IMG/VR virus record: IMGVR_UViG_2703718845_000002
Span: 1-42,999 of that record
DNA length: 42,999 nucleotides
DNA from: a virus
Lineage: Duplodnaviria > Heunggongvirae > Uroviricota > Caudoviricetes
Strand: one strand, 5' to 3'
Of this stretch, positions 1 to 19,097 are shown piece after piece (within the stretch, counting starts at the first letter, position 1; every line of letters starts with the position of its first letter). The notes beneath the pieces were generated by a model. That model ran no database searches, had not been told where the DNA came from, and was given only the letters and a program-made list of their open reading frames with translations. The translations under genes and the position numbers were made by a program.

Positions 1-288
1 TTAGAGGACAACAGCCCCAGCAAACTCTTCAGCTTGCATAAGTTGCTGCTCAGCCTGTTCTGTCCACGGCTTTGATGATGAAGCGTCCAGAGTTACCGCA
101 TACTCTCCTGCGTTAACTTTCGCCGCATCATTATATCGAACAGATACTGAGGCTTTAACTTGACCTGCATCATCCTGCCTGACGCTTTCTACTGAGTAAA
201 TGAGGTCAATATTGATATCCTTTTCACACAGAAATCCTCCGAGATAATAAATCTGTACAGTTTTTACTGCTGATAATTTAAATGACAT
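1..288 (-). CDS. Hypothetical protein immediately downstream of tail fiber gene
   Basis: ATG at 288 with AAGGA-type SD directly after the tail fiber stop (298..300); stop at 1..3; 95 aa, no recognisable motif. Confidence 0.45.
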   Translation of the reverse strand: MSFKLSAVKTVQIYYLGGFLCEKDINIDLIYSVESVRQDDAGQVKASVSVRYNDAAKVNAGEYAVTLDASSSKPWTEQAEQQLMQAEEFAGAVVL

Positions 289-297
289 AATGATTCC

Positions 298-2859
298 TTA
301 CGCAGGTAAGTAGTATTTTTCGCCATAAATAAGCTTGCACAGACTGAATGCCGCTGCATCTGCGCCAGCCTTGTAACTGACGGTATAGCCGAGGTCATTC
401 GGGTGGTTGAAATTAGGTGAGTTGAAAAGGGCTGACCATCCGTGTACCTCCACTCCCTGTTTGAACCAGGGGATTTCAGCTTCCAGTACAAATGCGGATT
501 TCTTCCGTGCTGTGGCTCGCGCCATGCTGTTATAGAGGCCAAACCGCACATCACCAACAACTTCAATACCACTCCCTGACCAGTCGGACTCCACAAATGA
601 CCGTGACGGTGGAGGATCGAGTACTTCCTCAATAATGCTGTCCAGATTAATTTGCTGAATAGTGGTATAAATCAGGCCAGAGACCGGAATATTTTCTGCC
701 ACAGTAATAGTGTTACGATCCGCAGAAATGCCGGTAATTGTGTAGTCGCCTGCATTGCTGCCGCCCACCCTCAATTTATGGCCAATTCGCAGAACCTGAC
801 CGCCCCAGCTGGTCGCTGCATTTCCTGTATCGTATGAGAACGCGGTGCTATGGATAGTATTGCTGGAAGAATCAAATGTGAAGTTGCCCGTAACATTGAA
901 AGTCCTCACAGGCCAGACAACATTCAGATCGCCAAGCGTGATGTTATTAACATTAGTGCTTTCCACATTATTATGGGGAGTTGTACAAACAATCACGATT
1001 GCGCCTTTTGCCGTGCACATATCAATTATGTTCTCAAGCTCTCCCTGCTGTTTCGGAAAGGTTCTTCCCCTGTTAAAGTTTCCTGGCGGGGCATCATTCA
1101 TACCCCCTACAATCAGAACGAAATCAGGCCAGTCGTCAGAGTTGGCACTGGTAAAATAGGGGGAGTTTTGTAGCTGTGCGGGAAACTGCTGTAATGCCTG
1201 ACCAATTATGCACTGATTGTCGTCGATAAACTCAAATTCCCCATACGGCGATAAGTATTTTTTCATCGCCTCAATAAATAGCGTATTCGGTGCAAAAGGC
1301 GCCCCCGGACCCCCGCCATCTGTTGACCCCGCGCCTAATCCTACCGACGAACCCGTTGATGTGAAGATAAGTCGTTTTTTTGTGACAGTTCTTACACCAT
1401 TGCTAAACGAAATTTTACCGAATGGCGAAGTATAAGCCGCTGTACCATCACCAATGAGTTTTATACGGAGCTTATCGTAGGGATCGGTAATGGCGCTTTG
1501 CAGGGTGGTGACATCACTTTTCAGGTTCAGAATGTCTGTGGTCGGATCGCCTGAGAGCAAAAGTTTGAAATTGTTAACGGGAGAACCACGATACTGAACC
1601 GTAACAGGTTTCGCTGCCTGCAGTTCGCCGCCAGTAAGCGCTGTGTTCGCCCCTTTGAATAAGTTACGCGTGACTGTGTTACCGTACATGTCGGTGATGA
1701 CAAGAGTCATAGCACCTGTATTTGCAGCAACCGGCTCAAAAGTAAGCTGAGTTCCATCTCCAAGTAACCCGGGAATTGTTAATGCTACTGAGTTAGGACT
1801 GGTAGCATCGCTGGTAACAGTTGCCTTTGAATAACCATTAAGTACACGGCTTCTGTCAGCCGGGTAGGTCAGCATCCGAAAATCTGCTGATGCAAAATTG
1901 AATTTAACGAGATACGTATATCCGGCTATCAAATCGCCCGCAGCGACGCTGGTCCCGTTATTTTGCTTAATCTGCCTTGCCGTGCCACCATTAACGGAAA
2001 GAGTTGGCGTGCGGGTTGTATTAGTGGCGCTTGGCGTAAAAAGAAAGACACGATCAGACGCAACAATTCCAGGAATTGCAGATGCGGTACCGGAATAGGC
2101 ATCTCCAGTACTAGCAACGCCAGACAATAACGCTACGCTATTTAATTCAAGCGTGGAAATTCTTGACGCAAGTTCAGCAGCTACTGGGCCGGATGCCACA
2201 AGGACAAAATTGTTAGCAGTCCCAGTGCGGAATTCCATCAGTGCGGGCTGATTGAGAAGCAACTCATTCCCAACTAAAGCTGCATTATTTTGTTTCTGTA
2301 TTGCCCGAGTAACCGAGTTCCCCCTGGCATCTGTCACGGTAACGCTAACAGCCGCCGTATTCAAAATAGGAGACAGGAAATAAATCAAACTGCCATCCAC
2401 TAATAATCCGGGGATAGTGATAGCAATGGTATTAGCCGCACCGCTACTCACAGCTGTAGCAGACTGGTAACCCATTGGCATTGCGGATGGCATTTTTCGT
2501 CCGGTTGGCTGCAACGTTCCGCCAACGTTCATGACCTCGATCGCGAGGGCGCTGTCATCCGGGCTGCGATAATAAGTAGTGCTCCCCTCGGGGATATTCG
2601 CGATATCCGCCTGCGCCGCTGCCAGGGTCATGTACTGCCGGCTGAGAGGGATCAGGTTCTGCCGCGTCTCTTCGACAACTTTATCCCCTTCCACCTTCAT
2701 TCCATCTACGGTGTAGTGCTCACCGCCGAGGCGATCGGTGTAGGTCAGGTCGGGACCGGTGACAACCTTATCCAGCATGGCGCCAGCATAAACTGCGTCC
2801 CGGATATCAGTGCTGGGCACCGGGTTGTCGGTTGGAGTTGGTAACGGTACTTCTGCCAT
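298..2859 (-). CDS. Tail fiber / receptor-binding protein with internal ~85-aa duplication and C-terminal SGNH/GDSL-like hydrolase domain
   Basis: 853 aa ORF, ATG at 2859; two repeated segments (TIPGLLVDGS...TVTDARGNSVTR and TIPGLLGDGT...VITDMYGNTVTR); C-terminal region has GGMND and HPNDLGY motifs consistent with SGNH blocks III and V; last large gene of the tail module. Confidence 0.7.
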   Translation of the reverse strand: MAEVPLPTPTDNPVPSTDIRDAVYAGAMLDKVVTGPDLTYTDRLGGEHYTVDGMKVEGDKVVEETRQNLIPLSRQYMTLAAAQADIANIPEGSTTYYRSPDDSALAIEVMNVGGTLQPTGRKMPSAMPMGYQSATAVSSGAANTIAITIPGLLVDGSLIYFLSPILNTAAVSVTVTDARGNSVTRAIQKQNNAALVGNELLLNQPALMEFRTGTANNFVLVASGPVAAELASRISTLELNSVALLSGVASTGDAYSGTASAIPGIVASDRVFLFTPSATNTTRTPTLSVNGGTARQIKQNNGTSVAAGDLIAGYTYLVKFNFASADFRMLTYPADRSRVLNGYSKATVTSDATSPNSVALTIPGLLGDGTQLTFEPVAANTGAMTLVITDMYGNTVTRNLFKGANTALTGGELQAAKPVTVQYRGSPVNNFKLLLSGDPTTDILNLKSDVTTLQSAITDPYDKLRIKLIGDGTAAYTSPFGKISFSNGVRTVTKKRLIFTSTGSSVGLGAGSTDGGGPGAPFAPNTLFIEAMKKYLSPYGEFEFIDDNQCIIGQALQQFPAQLQNSPYFTSANSDDWPDFVLIVGGMNDAPPGNFNRGRTFPKQQGELENIIDMCTAKGAIVIVCTTPHNNVESTNVNNITLGDLNVVWPVRTFNVTGNFTFDSSSNTIHSTAFSYDTGNAATSWGGQVLRIGHKLRVGGSNAGDYTITGISADRNTITVAENIPVSGLIYTTIQQINLDSIIEEVLDPPPSRSFVESDWSGSGIEVVGDVRFGLYNSMARATARKKSAFVLEAEIPWFKQGVEVHGWSALFNSPNFNHPNDLGYTVSYKAGADAAAFSLCKLIYGEKYYLPA

Positions 2860-2945: not shown

Positions 2946-5417
2946 TTACGGATAAATCGAGTCCGAATACTCTGTAAGGGAAAGAGTTTGAGTATCGTCA
3001 CCATTTGGCTTGGCGCTATCGACGCGCCAGATTGTGGAGTTCAGTTCCGAGTCGGTAGCGATGAAATACCGGCTTGGGTTTTGTACCGTGCTGCGGTCAT
3101 AAATATTCAGATCGAATGTGTCGGCTGCAGCCTGAAATGCTTTTGGCTTGCCGCTTACCGGATAAGCTCGCCAGCGCCCGCGGTAATTGCCGAGGCTGTC
3201 GGTCATCACTACCCACATATCGCCGAGTGAAAAGTCGATACGCTCTGACGTCGAGAACACATCCCCGGAGCGTCCGGTGATGTATCCAGTCTGCTGCGCG
3301 TTGTCGTACATGTCCGGACACTGAACCACCGTACCGCGCACCACCTGCGTCGACTCCAGCACTTTCACTGTCATGGTCAGGCGTGAGTAGAGGATTTTCC
3401 TCGCCTCAAGCCAGGCCCGATCGGTTGCCTGATTGGCGTTGCGGCAGCCGTCCAGGCTGATCTGCATCGCGTTAACAGTAGCGTCGGAAACTTCACTTAT
3501 TCCGGAGGTGCCCACGTTTAGGTATATGTAGGTCTTTTTGTTAGTTGAAGGGTCGACGTAGTCGAGCGTCACGCCGTCATACCCACCAGGTAAAGACATT
3601 TTCCATGACAACTTGTAATCTTCCCAGAACATATTCGAACGGGCGAAAACCGCATCTGGGTTAGAAACCCTTTCATCACGCCAGAATGTAAGAACATCAC
3701 CGATCCAGTTAAAACTAACGCGAGCTACGTTACAGATAGTCTGTATTCGCTCACCTAGCGGCTGATTTTCATCGGAAAATGTCCAGTCAAAATAACCAAG
3801 CTGAGCATCTGGCAGCGAGTCTTTAATGGCGTAAAGCGAAGGTAAATCAAGCCTGGATGGATCCTGTTTGCCAATGATCACCCACTCATGTAGTACGGCG
3901 TCAGCAAATGACCTGCTGGGCCGCAATGCAAAGTCAATGCCGCTTGACGTCCATGATATGACCTTCCTCTGCACCAGACAGTTATATTTACGATCTGACG
4001 CTACAGTCTGTGTTTCCGTCTGTCTGACAGTGACCCTGACAATTGTGTCATCGGTATATACTACGTTTTTACGGATGGTTACAGCATGCGCGCCGGACAA
4101 ATACAGTACTGAGTTGCTGGCCGAGTTATTGGTTCGCTCAGCTCTAAAGGCATAACGTCCAAAACCCGCCACAGGTGTTATTTTGTATGTCCGGTAAATG
4201 TAATCCTGATTGCCTCCATCGTTGTGCACGTTTACATCAATGCTCTCTTCGGTACCGGGTATCTGGTTGTTATCGGTGTCGACCTGCCACCATGTGATAC
4301 GGGCAGGCCCGTCATATCCGCCAGCTTCATTCGCGTAGAGGTGCACCCAAAGCTGATCACCAGGGAGCGCCGCAAAAAATGGCCCAACCGCAATAGTCGA
4401 ATACTGAGTCAGCGTGAAAAGAGTGCTGTTTACCGTGGCGTCTGCTGGCAATCCCTCAAAGTCTGGACCAGACAAATAGTTAAACCAAAACTCATAGAAT
4501 TGTTGCGGATCGATAAGTGTCCCATCATCTGATAGCGCAGAGTTAAACAAACTAGCAGATACATTGATGTTTTTTGTTACCAGCCCACTGGCTGTATTAT
4601 ATGACACATTTACAGTGATAGTGACCGAAAATGGTTTTGGAGAGTCATAGAAAACATCAAACTCATTTTGTTTTTCAATTTTTGCATAAAACTGGCCTCC
4701 AGCGAAACTACCAGCCAGCAAATTATTCGTCGTGGCTTGATTAACGATATTTGATGTCTGCTCGTTGGTGCCAGGAAGCTCCTGCCCATCAACATCGTCA
4801 AAGGCATATCCCTGAATAATCTCTGGGATTACCGTGCCTGGATGATAAACTTCATAGCTGGCGCCGGCCATAGCTACCAGAGAAGATTCGGAATAACGTA
4901 CTGATGAAATATTGTAGTGTCCATAGCCTATCTCCATCCACTCTGTAACCATTTTATTATTACTGATGTATTCAAACATCGATTCCTGTATGAGGTCTGG
5001 ATAGGCTCGTACTTGACCATAAATATTCGGTCTCCCTTTATATAGACGGGCCCGGTTAGTCTGCTGGGTGACATCATTGTTAGGCGACTCACCAGTTGCA
5101 ACAGAAACGCCTCCGGATTTTGGTGCAAGACCGAGCAATTTCATTGCGCCAGAGAGAATTTTTGTGACCGGTCGTAATATGGTGTTGATCAGTTTCCCTA
5201 CCCCACCCTCTGGCTGATCGAATATAAGGACTACATCATTTCTGCACAGCGGATAAGTTATCTCGAAGTCGTCATCAAGTTCTCTGCCGTTAAGCTTAAC
5301 TACCACATCATTGTGCAAATTCAGAGAATCAAGTAACTCAGCTAGCGGCGTTCCTTCCTCCGCAACTCCACGCTGCTTTGGCGCGCCAGGAAGGCGCTGT
5401 AATTCATATCGAACCAT
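2946..5417 (-). CDS. Central tail fiber / host specificity protein (lambda J-like position)
   Basis: Large ORF after the K-like gene; track start at 5495 is GTG, in-frame ATG at 5417 has a GGAG SD and overlaps the upstream stop (5404..5406). Confidence 0.7.
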   Translation of the reverse strand: MVRYELQRLPGAPKQRGVAEEGTPLAELLDSLNLHNDVVVKLNGRELDDDFEITYPLCRNDVVLIFDQPEGGVGKLINTILRPVTKILSGAMKLLGLAPKSGGVSVATGESPNNDVTQQTNRARLYKGRPNIYGQVRAYPDLIQESMFEYISNNKMVTEWMEIGYGHYNISSVRYSESSLVAMAGASYEVYHPGTVIPEIIQGYAFDDVDGQELPGTNEQTSNIVNQATTNNLLAGSFAGGQFYAKIEKQNEFDVFYDSPKPFSVTITVNVSYNTASGLVTKNINVSASLFNSALSDDGTLIDPQQFYEFWFNYLSGPDFEGLPADATVNSTLFTLTQYSTIAVGPFFAALPGDQLWVHLYANEAGGYDGPARITWWQVDTDNNQIPGTEESIDVNVHNDGGNQDYIYRTYKITPVAGFGRYAFRAERTNNSASNSVLYLSGAHAVTIRKNVVYTDDTIVRVTVRQTETQTVASDRKYNCLVQRKVISWTSSGIDFALRPSRSFADAVLHEWVIIGKQDPSRLDLPSLYAIKDSLPDAQLGYFDWTFSDENQPLGERIQTICNVARVSFNWIGDVLTFWRDERVSNPDAVFARSNMFWEDYKLSWKMSLPGGYDGVTLDYVDPSTNKKTYIYLNVGTSGISEVSDATVNAMQISLDGCRNANQATDRAWLEARKILYSRLTMTVKVLESTQVVRGTVVQCPDMYDNAQQTGYITGRSGDVFSTSERIDFSLGDMWVVMTDSLGNYRGRWRAYPVSGKPKAFQAAADTFDLNIYDRSTVQNPSRYFIATDSELNSTIWRVDSAKPNGDDTQTLSLTEYSDSIYP

Positions 5418-5799
5418 GCACCATATACTCCACGCGGCTGTATACTTTAAGAAGCGCCAGCGGGTTGTCGCTGCGCACGAAACCAAACTCCCCACGGGAA
5501 TGCAGGCACTTAACGGGGCTTGTCATTACGCCAATATGCGCCGGGACTTCACCACGATAGAAAACCGCAATGCAACCCGACACCGCTGCTGGTATCGTTC
5601 GCCAGTGCTCCACCTCCTGCTCATGGCAAGTAATGAAGTCAGCCCCGGCTTCATACGCTGGAATATGGTGTAACTCAAGTCCCAGCACATGCCGGTAATA
5701 CAGAACAACCAGCGCCCAACAATCCATCGATCCAAAACTGCAGGAGCGGTTAGCCCACGGCTTGCCGGTAACAAGCCGGATAAATTCGTCTTGCGTCAT
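5404..5799 (-). CDS. Tail assembly protein, NlpC/P60 peptidase-like (lambda K-like)
   Basis: 131 aa with Cys (SMDCWALV) and His (PAHIGV) in NlpC/P60-like arrangement; ATGA overlap with upstream gene at 5796..5799. Confidence 0.7.
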   Translation of the reverse strand: MTQDEFIRLVTGKPWANRSCSFGSMDCWALVVLYYRHVLGLELHHIPAYEAGADFITCHEQEVEHWRTIPAAVSGCIAVFYRGEVPAHIGVMTSPVKCLHSRGEFGFVRSDNPLALLKVYSRVEYMVHGSI

Positions 5800-12374: not shown

Positions 12375-13139
12375 TTAACTGATAGTGACCGCGCAGGATG
12401 CAGAAGTGATCGTGAATGGTGTCGCGGAAGAATCGGTAACTTCACAGGTATAGGCCCCGGCATCACCGGAAACAGCGCTGGCCTTGTTGAAGGTCGCCGT
12501 TGTTTGCCCGCTTACAACCGTGCCGTCTTTCTTCCAGACGTAGGTATAAGGCGAAGTGCCACCCTCAACCACTACCGACATATTCAGAGCCGCCCCTGCC
12601 GCCACGCTCTTGGTCGTCGGCAGGTTGGTGGTAAACGCCAGCGCCGGTGGAGCGACCTCAAATACTACGGTGTCTGCATCAGCAACTTTCCACTCACCAG
12701 AGAAGGTGGAAATATCCGTGGTGCCAAAATCACCAGACCAGGAGGTGGTGTTAAAGTAGCCCATGATATAAGTGCCAGCGTCTTCACCAGTGAAGTCGAA
12801 GCGGACCCAGACAGTCGGCTGACGGCCGGCCTGCACTTCATCGAAAATATATTTCGAGATGGCAATAGCTCCGACTTCCGTCGTCTTGTCTTTCTTGCGG
12901 AACTCACCTTCTCCGGAGATGGTGAAGTCCATGTTGTTGACCAGGTTCTCAACCAGCCCCTTCGTATCGTCAGCCTCAGAGGTGACGGTATTCATGGAGT
13001 AGTCAAAGCCCTTGGTGGTCATGGCGCCGAGTCGCTTCCATTCGGAAAGCGCAGGAACCGTATCAGCACAGCCAAAAGCCATGCGGAGCACGGCCACCTT
13101 ACCAATCAGCTTGCCGGTGTCATTAGCGCAGCCTTGCAT
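12375..13139 (-). CDS. Major tail (tube) protein with C-terminal Ig-like domain
   Basis: 254 aa; C-terminal 80 aa (SVVVEGGTSPYTYVWKKDGTVVSGQTTATF...AYTCEVTD) resembles an Ig-like fold as on lambda V; ATG at 13139. Confidence 0.8.
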   Translation of the reverse strand: MQGCANDTGKLIGKVAVLRMAFGCADTVPALSEWKRLGAMTTKGFDYSMNTVTSEADDTKGLVENLVNNMDFTISGEGEFRKKDKTTEVGAIAISKYIFDEVQAGRQPTVWVRFDFTGEDAGTYIMGYFNTTSWSGDFGTTDISTFSGEWKVADADTVVFEVAPPALAFTTNLPTTKSVAAGAALNMSVVVEGGTSPYTYVWKKDGTVVSGQTTATFNKASAVSGDAGAYTCEVTDSSATPFTITSASCAVTIS

Positions 13140-13154
13140 GTATGCCTCTCAATT

Positions 13155-13178
13155 AAAAAAGGCCGCCATATGGCAGCC
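13155..13178 (-). terminator. Strong hairpin plus U-run between tail terminator gene and major tail gene
   Basis: Near-perfect palindrome GGCCGCCATATGGCAGCC; minus-strand RNA forms a 7-bp stem followed by U6. Confidence 0.55.
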
Positions 13179-13197
13179 TGATGGGTGATTCTGACGA

Positions 13198-13581
13198 TTA
13201 TTCGCCGTATGTGCAGGATACGAGCAGCCGGGTTACTAACCGGCCCTCTTCGGTGGGGATCGGCGCCGGGACATTGCCGACAAGCCGTAGCGCGCCTACG
13301 CAATCATCGGCGCCGGATTGCGCGCTGATATACTCGACAATGGCGTTTACCGCGGCGTCCGCAGCATCGGGATTCGCCTTCGAGGAGATCACATCAACCA
13401 TCACATACCAGTCGCCGCCGAGGTCAAAGGTGATATCGGTACCGCCGGAAGACCGGAACACGATGAACTGATCGGTATCTTTCCCGGTGTCGCGCCATTG
13501 CCGCCACTGGACCTTAAACCCCGCGGTAAGCCCCTCATCCACAAACAGGTCTTTGAGGCGCATGTACATGGGGGGCGTCAT
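13198..13581 (-). CDS. Tail terminator / tail completion protein (U-like position)
   Basis: 127 aa ORF immediately upstream of the major tail gene, overlapping the preceding gene by 4 nt. Confidence 0.55.
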   Translation of the reverse strand: MTPPMYMRLKDLFVDEGLTAGFKVQWRQWRDTGKDTDQFIVFRSSGGTDITFDLGGDWYVMVDVISSKANPDAADAAVNAIVEYISAQSGADDCVGALRLVGNVPAPIPTEEGRLVTRLLVSCTYGE

Positions 13582-13946
13582 AGCGAAAGCTCCTTCTTCA
13601 CCACCGCGTCAATCTGGTTGCGGGTATCCTCGAAGCCTTTCGTTAAGAACTCCTTGCGGGCAGTTGCTCGCGTGAAGTTCTGTTTCACTGCCGGATCGTG
13701 AACATAAACCGCATAGTTGGCGGAGTAACCAACGCGCCCGGTTACCCTGGTGCCGTTAGCCATGATTTCGCGGAACTGGCTGTTGATGAGCGTCGACGTA
13801 TCGATCGGGGTGTAAAGCGCGGCCTGCGCGCTGCCGATAAGCATCGCAGACTGGATTGCTCGCACGACTTTACGTCCCTGAACGTCTTTAATGATGCGAT
13901 CGAGGTTGGCCTTGGCCTGGCGGATGCCGCGAACTTTAGCGCCCAT
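13578..13946 (-). CDS. HK97 gp10-family neck/tail component
   Basis: 122 aa; N-terminus MGAKVRGIRQAKANLDRI is typical of HK97 gp10-like proteins; correct position in head-tail joining module. Confidence 0.6.
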   Translation of the reverse strand: MGAKVRGIRQAKANLDRIIKDVQGRKVVRAIQSAMLIGSAQAALYTPIDTSTLINSQFREIMANGTRVTGRVGYSANYAVYVHDPAVKQNFTRATARKEFLTKGFEDTRNQIDAVVKKELSL

Positions 13947-13948
13947 AA

Positions 13949-14311
13949 TCAGACTCCCGTAATCAGTGCGAAATCGTCCGCCAGTCGCTCGAACGTATCT
14001 GCGAACTGGACGATCTGCCGAATCTCATCGGCCTCATCCGGCGGAGCCGCATCGGTCGACGCGCCAATCAGGATGTAATCTCCCTCCCGCGCCGTTGCGT
14101 ACTCGGTCCATATCGTGTTTTTAACCACAATCTCCCGGCCAAGGTCACCGATTTTTGCAGAGAGACCACCCTGGTAGTCGCAGAGAATAGCGTTCGGCGC
14201 TTCCCACCCGTAAGGCTGACCTCCGCCGTCGGTATCACTACCGTCAGCATCGCGTATACGCCGCCAGATTGTCGCCGTCGCGGTGTATGACCAATTAGCT
14301 ACCGAAGACAT
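13949..14311 (-). CDS. Head-tail adaptor / head closure protein
   Basis: 120 aa ORF in head-tail joining module; ATG at 14311 overlaps stop of upstream small ORF. Confidence 0.5.
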   Translation of the reverse strand: MSSVANWSYTATATIWRRIRDADGSDTDGGGQPYGWEAPNAILCDYQGGLSAKIGDLGREIVVKNTIWTEYATAREGDYILIGASTDAAPPDEADEIRQIVQFADTFERLADDFALITGV

Positions 14312-14951: not shown

Positions 14952-15245
14952 TTATTCAGCAGGGAATAGCTTTTCAAGTTCGCCATCCGGCAACAGCTCA
15001 CCAAGCTTTTCAGCCCCTATGTTTCCTTTAAACTCGATGCCTAATTCCGTCAGGCGGGCCTGAATAATCTCTTTTCGAGATTTTGTATCAGTGCCTGCTT
15101 CTGGTGTTGCCGGAGAGAGTTCCCCACCTGCTTCGCCGCGCATGAGACGAACGTTTGACTTCAGGGCCGGATGAAGATTTTCAAGTTCAACAACCTGCCC
15201 CAGCGCTACTCCATTCCACGGGCGCACCACTTCGTATTTAGCCAT
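14952..15245 (-). CDS. Hypothetical protein downstream of major capsid gene
   Basis: 97 aa, ATG at 15245; helical C-terminal segment (IIQARLTELGIEFKG...); function unknown. Confidence 0.5.
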   Translation of the reverse strand: MAKYEVVRPWNGVALGQVVELENLHPALKSNVRLMRGEAGGELSPATPEAGTDTKSRKEIIQARLTELGIEFKGNIGAEKLGELLPDGELEKLFPAE

Positions 15246-15254
15246 GCTGTTTCC

Positions 15255-16331
15255 TTACGCCAGGTTCGCGCCGTAGACAACGCCAGACAGGCCCTGATCG
15301 TCTGCAGTGATTTGCAGACCTTCAGCAGACATGATCTGGAAGTTGTAGTTAATGTTTGGGAGAGGGCGAGGTAGTGCAATAACGCCCTGAGCCATACCAA
15401 CAAGCGGAGAAATAACATCGCGACGGCGGACGTAAGCAATGAACTCATTACCGGACAGAGCGAACGTTGGGCGGATTTCTTTAACTGGCGCGAACGGCAG
15501 AACCTCCTGCAGAACATTGCCACTAATCACACCGTTCACTACGTACGGTTTTGCCAGGTTAGCCCAGATCTCATCAGATACCCACATTACGTCATAGGAA
15601 GAAACCTTGTTGGCACGTGCCGTTGTTCCGAAAGCGCCCTTTCCGAAGAACTCAATGATCTGCTCTGTAGTGGCGGTAGTCAGATCGATGTTTACGCCAC
15701 CTGCGCCAGAGCCAAGGTTAATTTTCTTGGTGTTGCGGTGGTTTTTCATACCCTGGGCAGGATAACCCTGCACCTGAATATTGGCATCACCTGAAAGGTA
15801 ATAAGCAACACGGCGCTTGTTTACTTTTTTGAGTTTCGCCATTTGCGAGTCGAGCACCAGATCTACACCAACCGAATTAAGACCTGCTGCGTGACGCCAG
15901 TTAACCCCATAGCCGGCGGTAAATACCGGAATAGGGTCGCCATCACTAGCATAGTCGGTGTGGTCAAAGGAGAACGGAGCCTGACCGTCAATGCTCACAG
16001 AAACATCATCAGCAATATCGCCGACAACGTTATATAACTTCGCCGTCTTTCCAACTGGAAGCACTGTCTGGACGCCCATCAGGTCATTGATGATTTCCAT
16101 GCCATCTTCCTGATCGCGTAGTTGCAGGATCTGGTTATCAATCTCAGCCCAGAAATCACGAGCGAAACCGCCAACAGCGTTACATGCCAACATTTCTGGC
16201 GTCATGTGCGCGCGGTTGACAGCAATCATAGCGTCATGTTGCGCGTTCCACATGTTGCGGTTAGCCCACAACTCATTCCAGTGAGCGCCAAGGCGAGCAT
16301 TAGTCGCCAGTGTCTCTTTAGAAAAGTACAT
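15255..16331 (-). CDS. Major capsid protein (lambda E-like)
   Basis: 358 aa; C-terminus (...NFQIMSAEGLQITADDQGLSGVVYGANLA) resembles the lambda gpE C-terminus as recalled; correct position and size. Confidence 0.8.
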   Translation of the reverse strand: MYFSKETLATNARLGAHWNELWANRNMWNAQHDAMIAVNRAHMTPEMLACNAVGGFARDFWAEIDNQILQLRDQEDGMEIINDLMGVQTVLPVGKTAKLYNVVGDIADDVSVSIDGQAPFSFDHTDYASDGDPIPVFTAGYGVNWRHAAGLNSVGVDLVLDSQMAKLKKVNKRRVAYYLSGDANIQVQGYPAQGMKNHRNTKKINLGSGAGGVNIDLTTATTEQIIEFFGKGAFGTTARANKVSSYDVMWVSDEIWANLAKPYVVNGVISGNVLQEVLPFAPVKEIRPTFALSGNEFIAYVRRRDVISPLVGMAQGVIALPRPLPNINYNFQIMSAEGLQITADDQGLSGVVYGANLA

Positions 16332-16348
16332 ATGCGTTTATCCTTTTG

Positions 16349-16798
16349 TTACGCGCCAGCTGCGGCGACAGTGCCAACGCGCATGCGCACGCGAATAAAA
16401 TCGGTAGTGCTGGCCGCGATGGTGTATTCATCCTGGCTGTAGCCGATCACTGAATCGGTGTCGGAGGTGGCAAGGGTGAACTGACCAGCCGTCCCAAGTT
16501 TGATAGGGCTGTCTTTCTTATACGCTCCAGGCAGGCAGCGTAACGCCAGTTCACGTCCCTCTTCGACATAGTTGCCGACCGCAGAATCACCGGCAGGAAT
16601 TGCTTCGGTGATGGTCAGTCCCTGGTGGTAGCCGACATCGATAATGTACAGGCGGCCAGTTAGTGCAGTTGCCTGAGCAAATTCATCAGAGGAGTTGATG
16701 GTAGCCGCGGTGCCTGGAAGAAGATCGGCGGCCGTGGTGCGGGTTTCGGTCTTGTAAAGAGACAGACCGTCGATATTAACGCGACGATAACGTGCCAT
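16349..16798 (-). CDS. Putative head decoration / capsid accessory protein
   Basis: 149 aa ORF between scaffold-like gene and major capsid gene, the position of lambda D; no motif-level support. Confidence 0.45.
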   Translation of the reverse strand: MARYRRVNIDGLSLYKTETRTTAADLLPGTAATINSSDEFAQATALTGRLYIIDVGYHQGLTITEAIPAGDSAVGNYVEEGRELALRCLPGAYKKDSPIKLGTAGQFTLATSDTDSVIGYSQDEYTIAASTTDFIRVRMRVGTVAAAGA

Positions 16799-16810
16799 TA
16801 TTCCGGCTCC

Positions 16811-18133
16811 TTATTTGAAGTATTCAGATGCGGCAGGAGCGCCAGTTTCTTTCGGCTGCTGAGCATTGTTGGTTCCCAACGGAGCGGCTTCACCGATAGT
16901 TTTAAACATTGCATCCAGCGCTTCACCAGACAGCGCATTGGCGACGATATCGCCGTGGACTTTCGCAACCGCTTCACGCTTGTTTTTTTCTTCAGCGCGG
17001 GAGTTGGCGGTCAGGGTTTCTGCCAGTTTCTGCTGATTGGCCTGCAGCGCATCAACCTTTTCTACAAGAGGCTTAATAGCCGCATCGGTATTAGTCGCAA
17101 CAGCCTGGCCGATCATGCTGCCGATTTGTTCCAGTTCTTCTTTGGTTAAAGGCATGTCGCCCTCCGTTTTGTGGTTTGGTGCAGGCTGTTCCTGCGGTGT
17201 GAATAGAGCTTTAAGTTTGTTAGTGACTACAGCCACCCACGACTCCTGTCGTGCAACTGCGGTGCCGGTATCGTCGAAGGTGATAATCCCGCCTTCTGAC
17301 TTGTAGCCAAACACCTCAGCATTGCCGCCGTTACGGATGATTACCGCTTGCGAGTCAGTGAAGTCAGCCACCCAGGCGTATTCGTCCTGGCCGCTCGCAA
17401 ACTTAGCTTTGGCAGCTCTATCGAGGCGCTGCTCGCGCTCCCGGTAAGATTCTCCGATCAGCGCGCCAGAATTGGCCTTTAACGGCTTCGCCATGTCAGC
17501 ATTAACCATCAGGCCAACACCTTGCTCAGGGGTGGCCGCTCCGACCTCATGCAGGAGAATCGCGTCATGGTCCATGCTGTGAATCTTCGCCACCCAGTCG
17601 GCACCTGTTGCGCGCTGCTGCTCATTTGGTTCAAGTTGATCGAGGAAAGCAGCCACACTGGTATGAATGGGTGGTACGTCTTCACCGCGCTCGATAGCCG
17701 CGACACGCTCAAGCAATTCTTTACCGCCTTCCGACTCGCCAGCGCGGGCCACATCGACCCACTTTTCGAGATAGATGCGATTACCGGACTTCTTAACATT
17801 GCGGTTCCACGCGCCGATATGGCCGGCATTAATCCCTTCAGGAGAAAACGCGGATACGAACTGGCCGTTAACCTGTGGGTGCCCCAGCGGCGCCAGAGTG
17901 CCCTCCAGCCCCTGATAGTGGGCATTGATTTCATCTTCCGTGTACAACCCGCCATTCATAACGACGTTCGCCGGAAGCGTGTAGCTCGGCAGCACCAGGT
18001 GCTCACGCCCATTGTACGTTTCGCGTCGGATAGACTGGCTATTCACCTTAGTGGTGATATTGACCTGAATGTGCTCACCATTTTGCGATGCCGGGATTGG
18101 ACGCTTTGCTTCGTGGTTTACCTGTAATTTCAT
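16811..18133 (-). CDS. Putative scaffolding / prohead core protein
   Basis: 440 aa with helical E/K/A/Q-rich C-terminal third, between minor head protein and capsid genes. Confidence 0.55.
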   Translation of the reverse strand: MKLQVNHEAKRPIPASQNGEHIQVNITTKVNSQSIRRETYNGREHLVLPSYTLPANVVMNGGLYTEDEINAHYQGLEGTLAPLGHPQVNGQFVSAFSPEGINAGHIGAWNRNVKKSGNRIYLEKWVDVARAGESEGGKELLERVAAIERGEDVPPIHTSVAAFLDQLEPNEQQRATGADWVAKIHSMDHDAILLHEVGAATPEQGVGLMVNADMAKPLKANSGALIGESYREREQRLDRAAKAKFASGQDEYAWVADFTDSQAVIIRNGGNAEVFGYKSEGGIITFDDTGTAVARQESWVAVVTNKLKALFTPQEQPAPNHKTEGDMPLTKEELEQIGSMIGQAVATNTDAAIKPLVEKVDALQANQQKLAETLTANSRAEEKNKREAVAKVHGDIVANALSGEALDAMFKTIGEAAPLGTNNAQQPKETGAPAASEYFK

Positions 18134-18146
18134 AGCTGTTAGCTCT

Positions 18147-19097
18147 CTATGCCGCGTGTTTATAACCGCAGCAACTGGAATGGTTGACCTTCATCTTCTT
18201 CCAATGACTGTCGAATTCCTTCTTAGCCATTTCGATGACGTTCGGATAAAGCGGCTTACCATCTGCATCAACAAGCACTTCCACTTGGCTGCATTTGCAG
18301 TTTATTGCATTAGCATCAACGGCATACCAGTCCCTGACCTCCTGAACTGTGTATGTGTGCGCGTGTCTCAGAGCATGCTTTATTCGCGTTGTTGGGCTTA
18401 ATGCGGAAAGGTGGAGAAGCCTGATGTTTAAGCCGAGATCATCCATTGAAGACTCAGCTTCATCCCATCGAGCCCGGCGCAGCGCAGTGGTAACCTCAGT
18501 GCGCGCTATCCGGTTCGCCCGACGTTTTTCGATGCCAGTCTGTGCGGTAAGGTTCCTGGCAATATCCAGCGGGTTAAGCCCTCGCCCTACACCATCAGTC
18601 AGCACGCGAGCCATGTCGCGCTTTACTTCTGCACTCAGGCCTTTCATTTCCTCAAACACACGCGCATGCACCAGCGTCATTCGTTGCTGGTACGGGTTGC
18701 TTGCAAGGATGGAGGCCAGGGACTCACGTCCAGCGGCGTACACCGGCGACTGCTGGCTGAGGTTGTAGAATGACTGTCCTGTGCCTTTCTCTGACGCCAA
18801 ATCGACATACTCATAAAACCACAGGTCGTACTCGTTACCATCCAGAAGCACCTGATCAACCAGATAACTGGCATCATTCAGGATGATGGATAGTAGGGTT
18901 GGGTTTAGCTGGTATTCGTATCTGGCGTTTACTGCGAGAGAGAATGGTATTTTGTCGAGTGCTGCTTTGTACGCTTTGCCAATCTTATTCATCCGCCTGG
19001 CGAAGTCTTTCATCGCCCGGCGTTCCAGCGCATCAGCTCCGGTCGGGTCCTGATAGTTACGCGGTAGAATCGGTGGCTTCGTCTTCTTCGCTGCCAT
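18147..19097 (-). CDS. Minor head protein (head morphogenesis, F-like)
   Basis: 316 aa following and overlapping the portal gene by 41 nt; composition and position typical of SPP1 gp7 / Mu F-like proteins. Confidence 0.65.
   Translation of the reverse strand: MAAKKTKPPILPRNYQDPTGADALERRAMKDFARRMNKIGKAYKAALDKIPFSLAVNARYEYQLNPTLLSIILNDASYLVDQVLLDGNEYDLWFYEYVDLASEKGTGQSFYNLSQQSPVYAAGRESLASILASNPYQQRMTLVHARVFEEMKGLSAEVKRDMARVLTDGVGRGLNPLDIARNLTAQTGIEKRRANRIARTEVTTALRRARWDEAESSMDDLGLNIRLLHLSALSPTTRIKHALRHAHTYTVQEVRDWYAVDANAINCKCSQVEVLVDADGKPLYPNVIEMAKKEFDSHWKKMKVNHSSCCGYKHAA

Follow-up and report, generated by a model that had tools for sequence, protein, structure and literature searches.

The window analysed here is the whole 42,999-nucleotide (nt) stretch of a Caudoviricetes record (IMG/VR IMGVR_UViG_2703718845_000002), and the subject of this work is the tail-fibre gene that it carries on the minus strand at 298..2859, which starts with ATG and encodes 853 amino acids (aa) followed by a stop codon. 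The window is a temperate siphovirus prophage. Genes for a large terminase, a head protein, an 868-aa tape-measure protein and minor tail proteins are oriented like the fibre gene, and RecE/RecT-type recombination genes and a DNA methyltransferase gene lie on the opposite strand at the far end. The DNA of the tail region matches Klebsiella temperate phages piecewise, at 80-88% identity. Directly upstream of the fibre gene is a gene for an 849-aa tail protein (phrog_469), and full-length homologues of the fibre are plentiful in Klebsiella and Escherichia coli prophages. Beyond the fibre gene, after 9 nt, a small open reading frame (ORF) of 95 aa on the same strand reaches the end of the window. 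An initial interpretation of the DNA letters (the sequence-only reading) had called 298..2859 a tail fibre, and this is borne out by the ORF itself, its tail-gene context and the phrog matches to its N-terminal anchor. The features of the locus are collected in Table 1.

Table 1. Features of the tail-fibre locus. Window positions are in nt; identity is to the homologue P0120 (174_38-KL55); residue counts give conservation among representative relatives (see text).
Feature	Residues	Window position	Strand	Identity to P0120	Evidence or conservation
Tail-fibre / receptor-binding protein gene	1-853	298..2859	-		ORF listing; 849-aa phrog_469 tail protein gene before it; full-length homologues
N-terminal anchor domain	1-127	2479..2859	-	17%	matches confined to aa 1-127: phrog_3257, phrog_9750 and phrog_14987 (E 1e-69 to 6e-52)
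Repeat A	128-232	2164..2478	-	88%	40% identical to repeat C, z=28.6
Repeat B, diverged middle copy	233-337	1849..2163	-	59%	z=5.8 against A, 4.2 against C; core motif common
Repeat C	338-446	1522..1848	-	86%	pairs with repeat A
Linker	447-495	1375..1521	-	92%	two short helices and a beta-hairpin into the SGNH core; model H2-11, H17-24, E37-41, E44-48
SGNH N-terminal half	496-639	943..1374	-	92%	blocks I, II and III; T626-T-P-H629 motif
Block I, G503-S-S505; candidate nucleophile S505	503-505	S505 codon 1345..1347	-		G503 142/142, S504 123/142, S505 141/142
Block II, N548...G553; oxyanion candidate G553	548-553	within 943..1374	-		N548 124/143, G553 135/143
Block III, G586-M-N588-D589 (in GGMND)	585-589	1093..1107	-		G586 130/148, N588 147/148, D589 128/148
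Family-specific T626-[TS]-P-H629	626-629	973..984			His 138/147
Beta-rich insert splitting the SGNH fold	640-738	646..942	-	91%	gaps in the matches of relatives; six strands in model
SGNH C-terminal half	739-853	301..645	-	87%	block V; conserved R772, N777, R781, E793, E795
Family-specific position 793 (Glu here)	793	481..483			Asp 140/146
Block V, N816-F-N-H819-P-N; HPNDLGY	816-825 (HPNDLGY 819-825)	385..405; His codon 403..405; Asn816 codon 412..414	-		H819 134/136; position 816 (three before His), n=136: Glu 76, Gln 29, Asn 20, Asp 4
Spacer, 9 nt, fibre to small ORF		289..297	-		AAGGA Shine-Dalgarno site overlapping the fibre stop codon, read directly
95-aa ORF, co-inherited with fibre	1-95 (own numbering)	1..288	-		91-96-aa counterpart ORFs in the same position of relatives

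The C-terminal region of the fibre was matched by the Pfam model PF13472 (Lipase_GDSL_2) at aa 555-630, with 26.2 bits (E=1.3e-5; gathering score 32.9). A word-indexed homologue search with the family profile brought no new sequences, and an exhaustive HMMER search was used instead, which returned 241 relatives at E<=1e-3. Conservation was counted over about 140 representatives with pairwise identity of at most 50%. The residues that define the SGNH family are well preserved among them: the Gly-x-Ser of block I, G553, G586, N588 and D589 of blocks II and III, and the His of block V. The motifs GGMND and HPNDLGY, which the sequence-only reading had singled out as SGNH-like, are true blocks III and V, and blocks I and II, which it had not listed, are present as well. 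The Asp of block V, the acid of the D-x-x-H triad, is replaced by Asn816. Since SGNH enzymes lacking this Asp are documented in the carbohydrate esterase families CE2 and CE20, Asn816 does not exclude the fibre from the family. Outside the four blocks the family has a conserved motif ending in H629 and an acidic position 793 of its own, and R772, N777, R781 and E795 are likewise conserved across the wider family; to judge from this pattern, one near-invariant polar residue outside the SGNH blocks may compensate for the absent Asp.

The same blocks were recovered independently in a 130-sequence alignment. Compared with the PDB, a profile of this alignment reached GDSL/SGNH enzymes only (YxiM at 1.7e-6, LAE5 at 5e-6 and TesA at 6e-6), with alignments that run through the GxND and HPN blocks. 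A single-sequence search of the PDB with the fibre gave no match, an NCBIfam scan of it returned only noise (expansin and halocyanin at E~0.09), and a scan of genome contigs with the C-terminal profile found nothing. The relatives also show where the domain is interrupted. Two separate stretches are matched in 109 of 149 relatives, with a median of 21 aa between them and about 100 aa in this fibre, and the long form of the insert occurs in only 19 of the 122 relatives that have the full domain.

The region aa 446-853 was modelled with AlphaFold2 from the 130-sequence alignment (model residue n is protein residue n+445). The predicted local distance difference test score (pLDDT) was 93.5 and the predicted template modelling score (pTM) 0.90; an earlier run with nine sequences had been poor (pLDDT 57). 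The model has the three-layer alpha/beta/alpha fold with a parallel five-stranded sheet that characterizes SGNH enzymes. Ser505 (model S60) is placed at the junction of strand 1 (model 50-58) and helix 1 (60-63), GMND comes after strand 3, and His819 (model H374) stands ahead of the last helix (model 377-403). The six strands of the insert extend from model residue 210 to 292, mostly with pLDDT above 90. A Foldseek comparison with the PDB gave SGNH/GDSL-type enzymes or an SGNH-bearing phage tail fibre (9lna) for all of the top 50 matches listed, which take in all 46 matches at E<=1e-3. In a viral library, the SGNH protein of Escherichia phage K30 was matched at E=1.6e-16, and the tailspike of Pectobacterium phage Possum was also recovered. 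On conserved blocks and model alike, the C-terminal 360 residues are firmly predicted to fold as an SGNH hydrolase.

A biochemically characterized protein is closely related to this fibre. According to the accessible text of Otwinowska et al. (PLoS Biol 2026; PMC13123978), the proteins 164_08-KL2 and 174_38-KL55 hydrolyse p-nitrophenyl acetate (pNPA), neither of them shows depolymerase activity across 118 K-types, and purified 174_38 is expressed at a high level and active alone. The same text assigns two PF13472 segments to 174_38, associates it with capsule locus KL55, and equates it with WP_255896696.1 at 100% identity and coverage. Our homologue P0120 is WP_255896696.1 and thus 174_38-KL55: both are 839 aa long, and 399 aa of the 174_38 sequence are identical to it. 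The window fibre and P0120 are 81% identical over aa 95-853 (761 aligned residues). They share the three repeats, the linker, both SGNH halves, the insert and all candidate catalytic residues; S505, G553, N588, H819, N816, H629 and E793 are identical in the two. Block V of the active homologue is thus Asp-less as well. Downstream of 174_38, separated from its stop codon by a 9-nt spacer as in the window, lies a homologous ORF of 96 aa. The differences lie in the N-terminal ~125 aa, which are unrelated at 17% identity, in the position of the gene (174_38 occupies the gpH slot of a P2-like myovirus, after gpI, and the window fibre follows the 849-aa siphovirus tail protein), and in the host, which is Klebsiella quasipneumoniae for 174_38 and E. 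coli for the window fibre. Like 174_38, the window fibre is encoded at the receptor-binding position among prophage tail genes and ends in an SGNH domain, and it is a further member of the class described and validated in 2026, from which it differs in anchor, tail type and host genus.

Taken together, we consider it likely that the gene encodes the distal tail fibre of this siphovirus prophage, with an SGNH-type acetyl-esterase tip that edits surface polysaccharide. The sequence-only reading had favoured an enzymatic fibre, an SGNH esterase or deacetylase, over a purely adhesive one, and this is supported by the conserved blocks, the PDB profile matches and the pNPA-active homologue. By analogy with this homologue, which is about 90% identical across the region concerned, the window fibre itself would be an acetyl-esterase, and its natural substrate would be the O-acetyl groups of a capsule or O-antigen. 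In the mechanism that we propose, the N-terminal 127 residues would dock the fibre onto the tail tip beside the 849-aa tail protein, as suggested by their position and by their exchange between relatives. The three beta-rich repeats of about 105 aa come next and may serve as shaft or spacer. In the active site, by analogy with GDS(L) enzymes, Ser505 would be the nucleophile and His819 the general base, with Gly553 and Asn588 forming the oxyanion hole. With the block V Asp replaced by Asn816, catalysis might proceed through a Ser-His dyad, or with help from the Asn or from water. Both solutions have precedents: CE2 carbohydrate esterases are Asp-less SGNH enzymes with Ser-His dyads (PMC9487903), and CE20 enzymes have a Ser-His-(H2O-Asp/Asn) triad together with a beta-sandwich domain inserted into the SGNH fold (PMC12313940). 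The beta-rich insert of about 100 aa may help to bind the substrate or shape the site for it. On contact with the host, O-acetyl groups would be taken off the capsule or O-antigen while the chain is left uncut, and de-acetylation would then let the phage bind specifically and reversibly and reach the cell surface through the polysaccharide layer, as has been described for the fibre gp63.1 of phage G7C.

The sequence-only reading had named the absence of a Ser-His-Asp triad as a reason to give up the esterase. Ser505 and His819 are indeed in place and the Asp is not, and that test is too strict, because the canonical Asp is Asn816 both here and in the active homologue. Several points do weigh against the esterase explanation. 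The canonical triad acid is absent, and 76 of 136 distant relatives have Glu in its position. The whole-protein Pfam score is under the gathering threshold, for which the insert of about 100 aa that splits the domain is probably the explanation. The activity measured is that of the homologue 174_38, and pNPA is an activated ester, so that hydrolysis by the homologue is no proof of polysaccharide turnover. Finally, the exact fibre is found in E. coli, and the KL55 association comes from a Klebsiella homologue with a different anchor.

Some of these points would fit an SGNH domain that is mainly a lectin-like module that binds polysaccharide, acetylated or of another kind, and turns over little or none of it, which would make the fibre in effect adhesive. 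Asn816 in place of the canonical Asp, and activity seen on an activated substrate only and in a homologue, speak for it. However, Ser505, Gly553, Asn588 and His819 are strongly conserved in distant relatives, which would be unexpected had catalysis been lost, the homologue that shares the Asn is clearly active, and Asp-less SGNH esterases are catalytically competent. We therefore regard a lectin-like tip as unlikely. It is also rather improbable that the esterase is a lipase or deacylase with a non-polysaccharide ester as its target, such as outer-membrane lipids or the acyl chains of lipopolysaccharide or lipid A. That the domain adds acyl groups, as an SGNH-like acyltransferase comparable to PatB, OatA or AlgX, is hardly credible, since such enzymes score below hydrolases in our comparisons, an extracellular virion protein would be without an activated acyl donor, and the homologue releases acid from pNPA.

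The acetyl-esterase fibre can be set beside several known systems. Phage G7C gp63.1 (PDB 4QNL), a fibre that deacetylates the E. coli 4s O-antigen, has a structurally equivalent SGNH esterase domain. Its sequence is only 14% identical to the window fibre over the aligned core, 4qnl was recovered by neither single-sequence nor profile searches of the PDB, and gp63.1, from a lytic N4-like podovirus, differs in overall architecture and is without the three-repeat array. By this analogy, the window fibre would work like gp63.1 yet stands outside its family. The K30 SGNH protein (F8R4T7), the Possum tailspike and the SFP21A Gp09 tail fibre (PDB 9LNA) are 10-21% identical to the window fibre and have other N-terminal parts and come from other phage types. 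CE2 enzymes resemble it in their Asp-less active site with a Ser-His dyad, and CE2 structures are among the fold matches; CE2 and CE20 are nevertheless cellular or secreted esterases of plant polysaccharides, likened to the fibre by active site and inserted domain and not by sequence. Virion surface esterases that remove O-acetyl groups from a glycan receptor are also found in influenza C (HEF) and in coronaviruses and toroviruses (HE). These belong to eukaryotic viruses, act on sialic acid and have an unrelated context, which makes them a functional analogy only. For SGNH enzymology, a conserved active site without the usual Asp, combined with an inserted domain, makes the fibre a useful case.

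Against 174_38, the anchor is 17% identical and the remaining regions of the protein 59-92%, and the anchor appears, from this comparison, to be exchangeable between fibres according to tail type. The region between anchor and linker was examined for repeats by segment-versus-segment Smith-Waterman alignment with 500 shuffles. Repeat A (aa 130-230) against repeat C (aa 342-443) scored 192, with a shuffle mean of 31 +/- 5.6 (z=28.6; 41 identities in 102 positions). Repeat A against B (aa ~240-330) scored 65, with a shuffle mean of 31 +/- 5.8 (z=5.8), and B against C scored 58, with 32 +/- 6.2 (z=4.2). The core pattern F-x-P-x3-NT ... R-x-I ... L-x-G-[DE]-L ... F-x-L recurs in all three. The fibre thus carries an array of three units of about 105 aa, in which the two well-conserved copies are separated. 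A tandem duplication of about 85 aa had been proposed in the sequence-only reading; the duplication is real, but its unit is about 100-105 aa, and a third copy stands between the two clear ones. A self-BLAST of the whole protein gave the trivial diagonal alone and did not reveal the duplication. A profile of the repeats found nothing significant in the PDB or Pfam: the best PDB match, to the solved tail fibre 9b45 gp47 through an NTGA...GGEL motif, was below threshold (E=0.34), and Pfam gave single-member noise.

The small gene that follows the fibre had been described as coupled to it, and the 9-nt spacer, the AAGGA site and the co-inheritance seen in relatives agree with this. Homologous fibres occur in three tail architectures: in the P2-like gpH slot (174_38), after GpJ in lambda-like siphoviruses, and, as in the window, after a tail protein of about 825 aa. 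An ORF of 91-96 aa, 60-96% identical to that of the window, lies within about 9 nt of the fibre in all three (for example L003 7530-7820, L005 7548-7823 and L011 7542-7829). Because it recurs behind the fibre in three tail types, the 95-aa ORF is, on this comparative evidence, part of the fibre cassette, and it would be co-expressed and co-inherited with the fibre, a relationship of linkage only. It has no match in Pfam, PHROG or NCBIfam. A Cor-like lipoprotein was considered and rejected, as the conserved LGG[FY]LC is no lipobox and by eye there is no signal-peptide-like N-terminus. The idea of an obligatory chaperone was weakened by the high expression and activity of 174_38 on its own; since 174_38 is active alone, the 95-aa protein is dispensable as a folding factor for esterase activity.

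Most deposits of the exact 853-aa fibre come from E. coli (61 contigs). With the E. coli contig L002 the window shares 99.99% identity, and with L001 99.56%; the flank of L001 (yecD, aspS, nudB, yebC; 15100-19100) is 100% identical to E. coli K-12. No exact copy is found among complete E. coli genomes, the best match having 86% identity over 61% of the query. With the family otherwise overwhelmingly from Klebsiella, the occurrence of the exact fibre in E. coli suggests that the module has been exchanged between the genera, perhaps in connection with Klebsiella-like capsules in E. coli. The window thereby adds a siphovirus- and E. coli-borne member to the SGNH fibre class, in which the enzymatic tip and its small partner gene are swapped between myovirus and siphovirus tails as well as between genera. 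Such fibres would set the range of encapsulated Klebsiella or E. coli strains open to a temperate phage, and would do so by editing the polysaccharide instead of cutting it, an esterase activity that escapes halo assays and K-locus typing.

The DNA that follows the small ORF lies outside the window and can be examined in related contigs. In L001 the small ORF is followed, at 13004-14089 (equal to L020 4433-5518), by a gene for a 361-aa Acyl_transf_3 protein (Pfam E=4.6e-33; phrog_3333 'O-acetyltransferase' E=6.5e-51) with a GC content of 36%, compared with 49% for the fibre gene; beyond it come two small ORFs and then the chromosome. L002 ends 194 nt past the small ORF and departs from L001 exactly 67 nt after it (L002 position 12927). 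An ISL3-family transposase gene stands at this same point, between small ORF and acyltransferase, in sister loci (L017, L024 at 4384-5604). An ISL3 insertion probably explains why the window ends at the small ORF. Since the divergence point of L002 is the ISL3 site of the sister loci, we infer that the source prophage of the window very probably continues into the same acyltransferase.

We at first considered the acyltransferase a lineage-specific moron, as it is absent beside the more distant fibre variants P0127, P0069, P0017 and P0120. This was revised after a look-up of the exact small ORF: the Acyl_transf_3 gene is directly downstream in 9 of the 9 sampled places that have downstream DNA (L017-L025), on two unrelated backbones. 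The DNA common to both backbones runs from about codon 68 of the fibre through the small ORF and the acyltransferase into the next ORF, some 4.2 kb (L020 1634-5858) at 91-93% identity. With the distant variants lacking the acyltransferase, the linkage is confined to one mobile lineage, and the gene could be hitch-hiking. Compared with isolated phages, the acyltransferase has no close relative (at most 40% identity). In one locus (L019), two Acyl_transf_3 genes flank the fibre cassette, one of 363 aa upstream on the opposite strand (1-1062) and the usual one downstream (4559-5518).

It is tempting to speculate, doubtful as the idea must be considered, that the receptor-binding part, the 95-aa ORF and the acyltransferase form a mobile module of about 4.2 kb in which the virion carries the 'eraser' and the lysogen the 'writer' of one O-acetyl mark on the same polysaccharide, with the 95-aa protein as a previously undescribed partner of the esterase tip. 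If this were true, the prophage would acetylate the surface of its host and so block competitor phages, while its own virions would still strip the mark; stripping could serve entry, or else could destroy receptors so that progeny are freed from debris. The accessible text of PMC13123978 treats prophage acetyltransferases and acetylation/de-acetylation in general terms, and within that text a physical linkage of fibre and acyltransferase is not described. A functional linkage would amount to coupled phage-encoded acetylation and de-acetylation of capsule or O-antigen, with a bearing on serotyping and on host range in phage therapy. What most deserves further study, in our opinion, is the module of esterase and acyltransferase, along with the conserved 95-aa partner.

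Some minor observations concern the neighbourhood of the fibre in this and related loci. The GpJ-type loci of variant P0069 (L005-L010) have a fibre 84% identical to that of the window and a 91-aa ORF. Facing these are a 252-aa ORF in opposed orientation and another fibre-like gene, which encodes 584 aa and is matched by Lipase_GDSL_2; next to them lies a resolvase/invertase gene (Resolvase + HTH_7). In L007 the whole two-fibre block is flipped relative to GpJ. The block looks like an invertible switch of the Gin/Cin type between two SGNH fibres, an arrangement that is absent from the window. In the window itself, the upstream tail protein ORF (2946..5495, minus strand) is separated from the fibre gene by 86 nt and was called mechanically from a GTG start at 849 aa; as near-identical loci are called at 823 aa, translation probably begins 26 codons later. 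Some homologues of the fibre (P0112, P0122) bear the database name 'flagellar biosynthesis, cell-distal portion of basal-body rod', and the upstream tail protein is labelled 'MoaD/ThiS family protein' in some records. Since these labels disagree with the tail-fibre and tail-protein assignments, they are probably misannotations.

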